This document shows, piece after piece, positions 55,753 to 57,781 of a stretch of DNA of 64,000 nucleotides. The stretch is from an uncultured virus (IMG/VR IMGVR_UViG_3300031994_000074) (lineage: Duplodnaviria > Heunggongvirae > Uroviricota > Caudoviricetes), in IMG/VR virus record IMGVR_UViG_3300031994_000074. One strand, given 5' to 3'. The position numbers and the translations under genes are program-made. Position 1 is the first letter of the stretch, and each line of letters opens with the position of its first letter. The notes beneath the pieces are model-generated. The model was not told the origin of the DNA. It ran no database searches and worked only from the letters and a program-made list of their open reading frames with translations.

Positions 55753-55926
55753 TGACGCAGATAAGGATCGGAAACGGTACGTATGTGCTCTACCAACTGA
55801 GCTACCGCATGACTATTATGCTGCCACCCTTACGGTGTGGCGCAAATACGTCTGTGCAGGCGGGACTCGAACCCGCGGCCGCACGGTTTACCAGCCGAAG
55901 TAACCGATTCCTGCAATGCTGCGTCA
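55753..55926 (-). ncRNA. yrlA: Y RNA, YrlA type (copy 1)
   Basis: terminal stem TGACGCAG/CTGCGTCA; T arm GCGGGTTCGAGTCCCGC lies 5' of D arm TAGCTCAGTTGGTAGAGC; near Ro60. Confidence 0.85.
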
Positions 55927-55928
55927 AG

Positions 55929-56001
55929 CGCTCCGGACAGGGCTTGAACCTGTGACCATCCGCTTAACGGGCGGGCGCTCTACCAACTGAGCTACCGGAG
56001 C
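55929..56001 (-). tRNA. tRNA-Asn(GTT), with C at position 33
   Basis: GCTCCGG/CCGGAGC, canonical D arm, loop CCGTTAA, T arm ACAGG-TTCAAGC-CCTGT, G73. Confidence 0.8.
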
Positions 56002-56002
56002 A

Positions 56003-56078
56003 TGGGTGCGGGGGAGAGATTTGAACTCTCGACCTCCTGGGTATGAGCCAGGCCATCTTCCACTGATAATACCCCGCA
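56003..56078 (-). tRNA. tRNA with CAT anticodon (Met, fMet-like or Ile2)
   Basis: TGCGGGG/CCCCGCA, CCTGG-CTCATAC-CCAGG, GAGAG-TTCAAAT-CTCTC, CCA. Confidence 0.8.
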
Positions 56079-56086
56079 GTATCTTG

Positions 56087-56157
56087 AGCGGATGGTGGGA
56101 ATCGAACCCGCACGGCCAGTTTGGAAAACTGGCGTTCTGCCATTAAACTACACCCGC
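56087..56157 (-). tRNA. tRNA-Gly(TCC)
   Basis: GCGGGTG acceptor, CCAGT-TTTCCAA-ACTGG, TTCGATT, U73. Confidence 0.9.
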
Positions 56158-56160
56158 ATT

Positions 56161-56301
56161 AAGGGGATGCCGGAATTGAACCGGCATTTCGATCAGACCA
56201 CCCGTACGCAGCGTTGCTGTCCCACTTATCGGCAGTCGCATTCATCCATCCACATGCGCGCGCATAGCGGACTTATCGGATTACTAAGACCCTAATCCTC
56301 C
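56161..56301 (-). ncRNA. tRNA-like RNA (~140 nt) with T arm and imperfect acceptor stem
   Basis: GGAGGAT/ATCCCCT; GCCGG-TTCAATT-CCGGC; internal CCGATAAGT twice. Confidence 0.5.
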
Positions 56302-56415
56302 ATGTATATGCCGACCACTCGCGCTCCACCGTCCTATTCTGTCATCTTACAGGTAATAACGATTTACAGTCTCCCTGATCGTCTGACAGTCATACGCCAA
56401 AGCCTTGTTCGTCGG

Positions 56416-56481
56416 CATGATTGCCAGTCTTTCCCGGCTGTCATTCGGTATGGCTTACGCCGTCTTTTGCCGATTGTCACG
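56416..56481 (-). ncRNA. small structured RNA, C4-antisense-like (copy 1)
   Basis: TGACAGCCGGGAAAGACTGGCA 3' hairpin; ends pair. Confidence 0.45.
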
Positions 56482-56530
56482 CTTCTTTGACTTTTGCGGG
56501 GTTACATTGAAGCGTAGCGCATCGCTCCCC

Positions 56531-56695
56531 TGGTGCACGGGTAAGGATTTGCACCTCACATGGAAACACAGTTATCACATGTGTGCTTTCTGTCAGCCGT
56601 TCCGATGTACCCGGCACTCCAATCAAGGGGCGTTTGTATATCTACAAACGCACTGGCCTATACCCGTCTGCGTCTACCTATTCCGCCACCGTGCA
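56531..56695 (-). ncRNA. tRNA-like ncRNA, resembling the skipping-rope motif (copy 3, ends in CCA)
   Basis: TGCACGG/CCGTGCA-CCA; TGGCGGAATAGGTAGACGC; CATGTGAGGTGCAAATCCTTAC. Confidence 0.65.
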
Positions 56696-56696
56696 T

Positions 56697-56764
56697 GTTG
56701 TGCCGGTCTTTCCCGGCTGCCAGCAGATCGTTTCCAGACGGCCTCTTGGTTAATTCTGCACAAC
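56697..56764 (-). ncRNA. small structured RNA, C4-antisense-like (copy 2)
   Basis: GTTGT/ACAAC closing stem; TGGCAGCCGGGAAAGACCGGCA hairpin. Confidence 0.45.
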
Positions 56765-56953
56765 CGCAATTACACAGAGCCGCTTGAGGGGGATCGTTCA
56801 GGACTTCCTACCCCATCCGACTTCTTCACACCGGACAATGCTGTTGCACCATGCGCCGTCTGAAATCGAATCGCCGGGCTTGGGGACTCGAACCCCGCTT
56901 CACATTGCCGCACGCGCCAGCGTGCAAGGTCTGGTGTGGTGTCCACGGAGAAT

Positions 56954-57329
56954 TGGTGGAGGCGACGGGATTTGAACCCGTGTCCAAATTGCGACAAATA
57001 CTGAGAATGCTTACACGATAGTCAGTTTAAGGCGATGACGCGCACGAAAGGAAGAAGAATTCCTCATGTCCACCACCTGCTTTTTTGTAGGCCTCTCATA
57101 GGCTGTCCGGCCGGAAGCAGGAAACCAGGCTTAAACGGTGCGCCATTCTATCTCTGATCCGCAGGAAGTTACCGAGTGGCAGGTCTTCCGTTTAAGAGCG
57201 AGACTGCATCAGGCAGCCTTCAGTTCGCCGTAAGAATAATCTTCGTCAGTTCTTTGTTTTGACCCGTAAGGTGGTGTCATACCCGTGTTCTCAGTACCAT
57301 TCACAACCTGTCGAAACCAATTCACCCCC
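56954..57329 (-). ncRNA. ssrA: tmRNA
   Basis: 5' GGGGGTGAATTGGTTTCGAC; 3' GACACGGGTTCAAATCCCGTCGCCTCCACCA; G3:U70; tag ORF 57247-57209 DEDYSYGELKAA*. Confidence 0.95.
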
Positions 57330-57545
57330 ATGTGATTGCCGGTAAACCGCATGGATGTAAACCCGGCTGCTTGCTTTTCCGTGTCGGTTGCCCCGTGGGT
57401 CGCCGTTCACCTACCGCTACACTCGGCACAAGATTTTAGCGCGTTCCTGATGATGAAGTTGTGTAGTTCTGCTCCAACGCTCGGTTTCATTTTTTTCCGT
57501 CTTTCCGGAATGCCATATGAAAGTGGTTGGCTGCAATTGTGCAGC

Positions 57546-57632
57546 TGGTGGGATGAGGTGGAGTCGAACCACCCGAGCCGAATGACAGCAGATTTACAGT
57601 CTGCACCGCTACCACTTACGGTATACCATCCC
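57546..57632 (-). tRNA. tRNA-Tyr(GTA)
   Basis: GCAGA-CTGTAAA-TCTGC, long variable arm, GGTGG-TTCGACT-CCACC, ACCA end. Confidence 0.92.
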
Positions 57633-57639
57633 ATGTTTT

Positions 57640-57781
57640 GCAGACAGATAAGAATCGAAGTCGGGCTATCATTGATTTTGCTCTGCCATCTGAGCTACCT
57701 GAAACTTCGTTTCAGGATTGGAATCGAACCAATCACACAAATCTGTCCTTCGAAGTATCCGACCTCTGCAATGCTGTCTGC
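57640..57781 (-). ncRNA. yrlA: Y RNA, YrlA type (copy 2)
   Basis: GCAGACAG/CTGTCTGC terminal stem; T arm GATTGGTTCGATTCCAATC, closed acceptor mimic CTGAAAC-GAA-GTTTCAG, then D arm TAGCTCAGATGGCAGAGC. Confidence 0.85.

Follow-up and report, generated by a model that had tools for sequence, protein, structure and literature searches.

Probable YrlA-type Y RNA genes of a divergent kind in the tRNA and tmRNA array of an uncultured phage that encodes Ro60

Introduction

Tethering of the protein Ro60 to an effector by the head of a Y RNA has been proposed for YrlA and has been shown for Yrn1 of D. radiodurans and for Yrl1 and Yrl2 of phage phiLo. Here we describe an array of RNA genes in a prophage-like region of a 64-kb stretch of DNA from an uncultured virus of the Caudoviricetes (IMG/VR record IMGVR_UViG_3300031994_000074; the whole stretch is called the window below), in which two elements resembling transfer RNA (tRNA), copy 1 and copy 2, and a hairpin-type element, Y3, are found together with genes for four tRNAs, a transfer-messenger RNA (tmRNA), an RlaP-family nucleotidyltransferase and Ro60, all on the minus strand (Table 1). 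The elements are most probably Y RNA genes of the YrlA type, belonging to a Ro60 system that the phage itself encodes.

YrlA of S. Typhimurium, M. smegmatis and others (RF02553) consists of a module of paired 5' and 3' stems under a permuted tRNA-like head (PMC4201824; 10.1101/312249), and the elements of the window share this ground plan. According to PMC4201824, the head comprises, in this order, a nearly invariant T arm, a closed acceptor-like stem-loop, which is conserved in structure and not in sequence, and a D arm, while the second stem is followed by NUAC, a V hairpin optionally precedes the T arm, and the Levitt pair covaries between G:C and A:U. By the same account the YrlA gene lies upstream of Ro60, on one strand with it and at most 4 kb away, with a simpler second Y RNA beside it, and all of these traits have their likeness in the array described here. 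A motif close to YrlA's 5' end, GNCGAAN0-1G, is regarded there as the putative site of Ro60 recognition, and YrlA genes have also been predicted in other Firmicutes, for example Clostridium beijerinckii (Table S1 of PMC4201824). Binding by Ro60/Rsr and modifications of the tRNA type (pseudouridine 55, dihydrouridine) are further characters of YrlA. The second close system is that of the Thermus phage phiLo, which likewise has a phage Ro60 with two Y RNA-like genes directly upstream, and whose Ro60 binds Yrl1 and Yrl2 and forms a ternary complex with the host PNPase (PMC12135203; PDB 9KOP, 9L5Y). Those RNAs were chosen by a CGAA motif and a stem-bulge-stem shape, and the accessible passages of PMC12135203 make no mention of a tRNA-like head. 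In contrast, two of the three RNAs in the window have full T and D arms, CGAA is not conserved, and the genes stand in a tRNA/tmRNA array with an RlaP gene. With canonical tRNA the elements have in common the T arm, the D arm and the signatures of U8 and of the 15:48 pair, whereas the permuted order of the arms, the closed acceptor end and the lack of an anticodon arm set them apart.

Since Y RNAs beside Ro60 are known already, phages and Firmicutes included, genes of this kind were to be expected at the locus rather than surprising. What is new is the clade itself, with its own base signature, its scores below the Rfam threshold throughout, its acceptor-arm expansions and its arrays of several paralogues within tRNA/tmRNA clusters. 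In the literature on YrlA, Ro60 and TROVE in phages no account of this clade was found, one supplementary file of PMC4201824 being unsearchable.

Two tRNA-like elements with a permuted head

An earlier sequence-only reading had proposed that both elements have paired ends, one motif in common at the 5' side and another at the 3' side, and a D arm preceded by a T arm, that the acceptor-stem mimic of copy 2 is closed by a 3-nucleotide (nt) loop where copy 1 carries an extra structured insert of about 45 nt, and that copy 2 begins at a predicted transcription start. Our analysis confirmed these structural observations for both elements on the minus strand. Each element is closed by a perfect terminal stem of 8 base pairs (bp), and the shared 5' motif, CAGCATTGCAGNNNTCGGNTACTTCG (26 bases), occurs exactly twice in the window, at the two elements, with no match in any of 100 shuffles. 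The shared 3' motif, CGATNCTTATCTG, was seen in the pairwise alignment of the copies, which are 59% identical, and in each of them the T arm (GGTTCGAnTCC) stands upstream of the D arm (TAGCTCAGnTGGnAGAGC). The acceptor mimic of copy 2 is an 8-bp stem with a GAA loop, and that of copy 1 is a 5-bp stem around 45 nt that form an irregular rod of about 17 bp with a GUAA cap. The first base of copy 2 (57781) lies 7 nt past the -10 hexamer ending at 57788 of a promoter-like site that was recognised by consensus match only. Both elements are also predicted to fold more stably than expected, with z-scores of -3.9 and -2.8; the conservation of the fold and the covariation in 43 relatives, reported below, are more decisive than these z-scores.

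A family of related elements upstream of Ro60

With the Ro60 protein of the window 7 viral loci, 24 loci from genomes and 54 metagenome loci were retrieved. The genome loci come nearly all from metagenome-assembled genomes of rumen or gut Clostridia, two being titled Bacteroidales or Alistipes, and in every viral locus with upstream DNA elements of the same design fill the space before Ro60. With a covariance model built from 10 elements (R1), full-length tRNA-like elements were detected at E <= 1e-13 in 25 of 31 sources, 43 in all, and 16 of these 25 sources hold two or three each; 32 of the 43 matches lie outside the training set, the second window element not being counted. The six sources without a strong match mostly lack upstream DNA or hold simpler forms only. 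In addition, R1 gave many matches of lower score to T-arm-only forms and plain hairpins, which have nothing but the base in common with the others, with up to five or six Y-like elements at a locus. Several Y paralogues per locus are the normal state in this clade.

In the alignment of the 43 members, 95.3% of the cells at paired positions are paired and 28 of 30 pairs have changed on both sides, a result that none of 500 shuffles reached, while sliding the partners by 1-3 columns as a control lowered the paired fraction to 41.5-49.8%. Helices 1 and 2 of the base are 92.5% and 94.5% paired, with compensatory changes in 15 of their 16 pairs; helix 4, the acceptor-like arm, is 96.7% paired, with compensatory change in all five pairs; and among the 42 distinct relatives the T helix is paired without exception (100%) and the D helix to 94.6%. 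Similarly, RNAalifold recovered the same five helices, with 29 pairs of which 22 are compensatory, from a MAFFT alignment of the 10 training sequences that had not been fitted to the model.

The elements also carry the marks of a tRNA elbow. Across the relatives the T loop reads UUCRAnU and the D loop A-R-..GG..A, the analogue of U8 is U in all 43 elements, and the analogue of the Levitt pair (15:48) is G:C in 24, A:U in 17, G:G in one (copy 2) and gapped in one. NUAC follows stem 2 in 43 of 43 elements (UUAC 33, AUAC 9, GUAC 1); at the YUAY start of the V region copy 1 has UUAC and copy 2 AUAC, the first base of which is not a pyrimidine. A V hairpin as a feature of the whole family was rejected, with 64% of its cells paired: it belongs to a subset, which includes copy 1 in part and excludes copy 2. 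In the clade stem 1 is followed by a conserved G-CAUUGYA and stem 2 by a conserved GGUUACUUCG, G(A/U)UnnUUAUC is the block conserved in the 3' strand, and it is the basal module, not the head, in which sequence is conserved best.

Orthologues of copy 1 and copy 2 coexist in the related loci L170, L175/L176 and L153/L154, which together with L169 are the nearest relatives that hold orthologues of the copies, and this retention as separate orthologues would fit paralogues with distinct roles. The copies differ mainly in the V region and in the acceptor-like arm. In copy 1 the region of this arm is the longest of the 43 (55 nt, compared with 32 nt in the next two and about 19 nt typically), and in its orthologues the blocks flanking the insert are conserved, the apical loop is variable and the changes in the enclosing stem are compensatory. 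The copy 2 orthologue of the closest relative, L154 (2502-2721), which is 220 nt long, has a larger acceptor-arm insertion at the same site. Since the insert of copy 1 is conserved and this second insertion falls at the same place, the acceptor-like arm is a site of expansion.

Apart from this, the tRNA-like heads of the clade were seen to fall into several D-arm classes (TAGCTCA..GAGC, TGGTGTA..CAC, TCGTCYAG..GGAC and TGGTCAAG..GAC; relatives L128, L141, L144, L147, L137, L138, L150, L004, L002 and L145), and one element of each class often occurs in one locus, as if the paralogues copied different tRNA species.

Linkage to Ro60

The Ro60 start (54677) lies downstream of both copies on the same strand, at a distance of 1.1 kb from the end of copy 1 and of 3.0 kb from that of copy 2, and the closest solved structure to the Ro60 of the window is that of Thermus phage phiLo Ro60 (E 4.5e-34, residues 8-469). 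The family was also searched for without reference to Ro60. A 24-base IUPAC pattern run against viral contigs gave 120 stretches, 80 of which were fetched and searched with R1; five of the 80 contained R1 matches, and all five have a Ro60 gene immediately downstream, in the same orientation. The remaining 75 stretches yielded no family member at E <= 1e-5 and are most likely chance matches of the pattern. When R1 was run over five whole genomes, 14 of 15 matches of at least 40 bits lay inside Ro60 loci.

The fifteenth, the full-length member G003:C1:120859-120995 (4860-4996 of L152, minus strand), has no Ro60 in the 4.8 kb downstream of it, nor in the 2 kb to the end of the contig, and may be an orphan copy.

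Relation to the Rfam YrlA family

In a search of 3 kb with the YrlA model, which the sequence-only reading had named as a check, both elements aligned end to end (model positions 1-114; E 3e-5 and 3e-4), but their scores of 35.0 and 31.7 bits compare with a gathering score of 69. At the gathering score, Rfam listed only four tRNAs and the tmRNA in the whole window, YrlA not being among the matches, and neither ARAGORN (4 tRNAs and 1 tmRNA in the window) nor the Rfam tRNA model called a tRNA at either element. The best of the relatives reached 47.8 bits with the YrlA model, and no YrlA match at the gathering score was found in 14 related loci, although these are rich in R1 matches. Because the scores are below threshold and genuine tRNAs reach 25.4 bits, the Rfam score alone could not settle the YrlA identity.

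The earlier identification as YrlA thus holds for the permuted-head ground plan and the linkage to Ro60, but neither for the RF02553 threshold nor for GNCGAAN0-1G, which is missing. CGAA by itself occurs within the first 50 nt of 4 of the 43 elements, copy 2 included. Since the ground plan fits while the motif and the Rfam threshold fail, the elements are, as judged from their sequences, a divergent variant of the YrlA kind and not members of RF02553. Instead of GNCGAAN0-1G, the clade has blocks of its own (G-CAUUGYA, GGUUACUUCG and UUUUAUC), and it further differs from YrlA (PMC4201824) in its acceptor-arm expansion segments and in the number of its Y-like RNAs, of which a locus can hold as many as five or six. 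While keeping the tRNA-like head, it has exchanged the sequence that Ro60 is presumed to read, and it contains natural series of paralogues that differ in their heads and acceptor-arm insertions; it hence provides a comparative set for two questions, namely what Ro60 recognises on the Y RNAs of bacteria and phages, and which effector binds the tRNA-like module.

Y3, a third Y-like RNA

The sequence-only reading had counted two Y RNAs. Both tRNA-like elements are real, but the locus holds three Y-like RNAs, the third of which, Y3, had been missed. In Y3 a 13-bp terminal stem, a UAUUGCA loop and a stem 2 are topped by a small apical hairpin, and a U-rich run that resembles a terminator comes after the element. 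It is 89-96% identical in five relatives, and in more distant relatives compensatory changes are found in both stems. As a short hairpin with a long stem beside a tRNA-like Y RNA, and with a presumed Ro60-binding base, it is alike in design to YrlB, Yrn2 and the YrlB of M. smegmatis, as these are described in PMC4201824. By analogy, Y3 would correspond to this hairpin-type second Y RNA (YrlB, Yrn2), from which it differs in the terminal U-rich run; it could double as a terminator.

Proposed function and alternative explanations

If the elements are Y RNA genes of the phage's Ro60 system, the strong, near-consensus promoter at 57817-57788 probably drives a long array of RNA genes, from copy 2 through Y3, followed by the RlaP and Ro60 genes. 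The host enzymes by which the adjacent tRNAs are released would trim the Y RNAs as well, whose ends may in part be set by tRNA processing, since the gaps are 7 nt between the 3' end of copy 2 and the 5' end of tRNA-Tyr and 2 nt between the discriminator of tRNA-Asn (55929) and the first base of copy 1. The position of Y RNA genes inside a phage tRNA/tmRNA array, where tRNA-processing enzymes could set their ends, is of interest for this reason. The basal module, that is stem 1, an internal loop with CAUUGYA facing G(A/U)UnnUUAU, and the 8-bp stem 2, would serve as the docking site of Ro60, by analogy with Ro60-Y RNA complexes that have been solved and tested. Atop it sits a tRNA-like elbow of T and D arms bearing the tertiary-pair signatures, and the RNA cannot be charged, because its acceptor arm is sealed. 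Most likely the head is a tether between Ro60 and an effector, for example the host PNPase or an enzyme that recognises tRNA, and the ribonucleoprotein (RNP) so formed would take part in the decay or repair of RNA in the course of infection or upon induction. Through their differing acceptor arms the two copies probably present different surfaces, which would give the paralogues different partners.

Several observations weigh against this interpretation. The two elements score less than half the Rfam gathering score for YrlA, and with that model the junction of two adjoining genuine tRNAs reaches 25.4 bits. GNCGAAN0-1G is found in the first 50 nt of none of the 43 elements and anywhere in only one of them. 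Copy 2 is the sole G:G exception at the Levitt-pair analogue. The alignment that shows the covariation was fitted to R1, and some of the loci are near-duplicates (42 of the 43 rows are distinct). The strong family member G003:C1:120859-120995 (69.8 bits) is without a Ro60 gene within 4.8 kb downstream, and RlaP neighbours Ro60 only in the window and in L153/L154 and is thus no general partner.

With regard to expression, parts of the stretch occur in 12 RNA-library runs, four of which were compared with it in detail, and one of these (X1) contained exact contigs over 56686-56940, part of the 0.8-kb region of the array without a recognised gene, and over 57016-57379 (tmRNA). No exact contig from the four runs lies on any of the three Y RNAs, contigs of this kind showing presence only and being uninformative for small structured RNAs. 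Short RNA-library matches at 55786-55805 and 57586-57604 were rejected as D-arm or tRNA pieces of other organisms.

The heads found in the clade comprise tRNA-like elbows of several D-arm classes, T-arm-only forms, plain hairpins and expansion segments such as the 45-nt rod of copy 1. A tentative and rather doubtful extension of the Y RNA interpretation is that they form a modular adaptor kit in a clade of rumen and gut Clostridia phages, in which as many as five or six Y-like RNAs of a locus would attend to one Ro60 ring, all with a shared docking base that is specific to the clade and lacks GNCGAA, and with interchangeable heads, each coupling Ro60 to a different host or phage enzyme (PNPase, the end-repair transferase RlaP, tRNA-processing enzymes). 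Together with the phage tRNAs and the tmRNA, such a kit might constitute an island by which the translation apparatus is protected or repaired when the host turns tRNA-directed defences on it.

Alternatively, the elements could be tRNA decoys that act without Ro60 and soak up or redirect tRNA-binding proteins of the host (modification enzymes, RNase P, tRNA-directed defence factors), their adjacency to Ro60 being a matter of hitch-hiking in an accessory RNA island. The tRNA elbow signatures retained in the heads, the absence of the canonical Ro60 motif and the family member without a nearby Ro60 gene would all agree with such decoys. However, the strongest conserved blocks lie in the basal module, which is common to head-less hairpins such as Y3, and Ro60 accompanies the family in five of the five loci found by pattern and in 14 of the 15 strong genome-wide matches. 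Moreover, the elements have neither the anticodon loop nor the free acceptor end that anticodon nucleases or synthetases would need, and we therefore regard the decoy explanation as unlikely.

It is also conceivable, and in our judgement very unlikely, that the elements are cis-acting signals for the processing or stability of a polycistronic transcript, a kind of tRNA-like punctuation, with Y3 as a terminator or attenuator before RlaP and Ro60. The elements do lie within 2-7 nt of tRNAs, Y3 is a long hairpin with a U-rich run which in relatives stands just before the Ro60 start codon, and the stretch from the promoter to Ro60 gave no terminator call. Yet closed structures of 130-175 nt with a conserved internal loop and co-varying stems, present two to six times per locus, exceed what punctuation needs, and in other species RNAs of the same design have been proven to act in trans as subunits of an RNP (PMC4201824, PMC12135203).

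Finally, that the elements are decayed tRNA fragments or functionless recombination scars in a tRNA array beside an integrase gene is hardly credible, since compensatory changes occur in all five helices over 43 elements, basal motifs foreign to tRNA are conserved and orthologues exist in many independent contigs, even though the tRNA/tmRNA cluster lies about 650 nt from the integrase gene, the D arm of copy 1 is identical to that of the adjoining tRNA-Asn and genuine tRNAs nearby reproduce some of the signal (25.4 bits).

Organisation of the locus and neighbouring genes

The positions of the RNA elements, their parts and the protein genes are compiled in Table 1. The array is flanked by the integrase gene and by genes resembling helix-turn-helix repressors, and the remainder of the window consists of phage-type genes.

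Table 1. Features of the RNA gene array and the adjoining RlaP and Ro60 genes in the window; L numbers designate related loci.
Feature	Position	Strand	Details
Promoter-like site, sigma-70 type	57788..57817	minus	TTGACA, 18 nt, TG-TATTAT; 11/12 matches plus TG extension; consensus match only
Y RNA copy 2, 142 nt	57640..57781	minus	R1 118.1 bits; Rfam YrlA 35.0 bits; orthologues L170, L175, L169, L172, L154
Copy 2, stem 1	57781-57774 with 57647-57640	minus	
Copy 2, internal loop and stem 2	57766-57759 with 57664-57657	minus	internal loop CAUUGCA
Copy 2, T arm	57733-57717	minus	
Copy 2, acceptor mimic	57716-57698	minus	8 bp and GAA loop
Copy 2, D arm	57695-57680	minus	
tRNA-Tyr(GTA)	57546..57632	minus	Rfam and ARAGORN
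tmRNA gene	56954..57329	minus	tag DEDYSYGELKAA*; 97.5 bits
Region of about 0.8 kb without a recognised gene, many tRNA-like pieces	56158..56953	minus	
tRNA-Gly(TCC), tRNA-Met(CAT), tRNA-Asn(GTT)	55928..56157	minus	Rfam and ARAGORN
Y RNA copy 1, 174 nt	55753..55926	minus	R1 111.0 bits; Rfam YrlA 31.7 bits; insert-bearing orthologues L170, L175/L176, L153/L154
Copy 1, stem 1	55926-55919 with 55760-55753	minus	
Copy 1, stem 2	55911-55904 with 55777-55770	minus	followed by UUAC, then V hairpin
Copy 1, T arm	55876-55860	minus	
Copy 1, acceptor mimic	55859-55805	minus	contains the 45-nt insert, 55854-55810
Copy 1, D arm	55802-55787	minus	
Y3, third Y-like RNA, hairpin type	55507..55596	minus	R1 23.8 bits, E 1.8e-5, basal module only
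RlaP-family Pol-beta nucleotidyltransferase gene	54691..55425	minus	PF10127 30.8 bits (cut-off 23); PHROG nucleotidyltransferase
Ro60 orthologue, TROVE and Ro60-vWA	53247..54677	minus	TROVE 1.9e-39; vWA_Ro60 7e-11; phrog_850

RlaP adds one or two nucleotides to damaged 3' ends of RNA, according to a preprint. Because among the relatives it adjoins Ro60 in L153/L154 alone, besides the window, it is an accessory at this locus and not a core partner of Ro60.

The open reading frame of 616 amino acids downstream of Ro60 (50675-52525, minus strand) has only weak atlas neighbours, and a partial homologue (34% over 219 amino acids) was found only in L004. For the reading frames of 616, 96 and 83 amino acids 3' of Ro60 no informative family match was obtained, the longest having none in Pfam, PHROGs or NCBIfam. 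A blastn search of the sequence against cultured phages returned tRNA pieces as the sole matches. The tmRNA gene of the window sits within the phage RNA array, and the distant Ro60 relative L002 also has a tmRNA (4074-4422; tag AEPKLKAA*) upstream of its Y RNA array.

The 0.8-kb tRNA-like region and other RNAs of related loci

The region between tRNA-Gly and the tmRNA gene includes a non-canonical tRNA-like element of about 170 nt (approximately 56697-56527) with a D arm of class-II type, a 6-bp T arm with the loop UGCAAAU and a 7-bp acceptor pairing, its D arm being separated from its T arm by about 107 nt. At L132:2620-2745 these two arms recur together with an acceptor stem that has changed in a compensatory way, and ARAGORN and Rfam made no call for either of the two. 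When ARAGORN was applied to 56158-56953 with lowered thresholds, it suggested a tRNA-Leu interrupted by a 664-nt intron as well as a permuted tmRNA, both of which were rejected for their poor acceptor and D arms. The region further contains T-arm-like hairpins at 56896-56880 and 56185-56169 (minus strand) and a repeat, CAGCCGGGAAAGAC(C/T)GGCA, at about 56717 and 56443, and different relatives have kept different sub-segments of it.

Two further RNAs were noted in related loci. In L139 (2779-3422) there are three matches to the Twister-P5 ribozyme (53.9, 43.1 and 41.7 bits; gathering score 37.6), and the Y RNA array of this locus begins about 1-1.5 kb downstream of them. In L002, OLE RNA is matched in part (1438-1582; 45.9 bits against a gathering score of 50; E 6e-9; model positions 282-595), and the match falls inside the tRNA array of that related phage contig.

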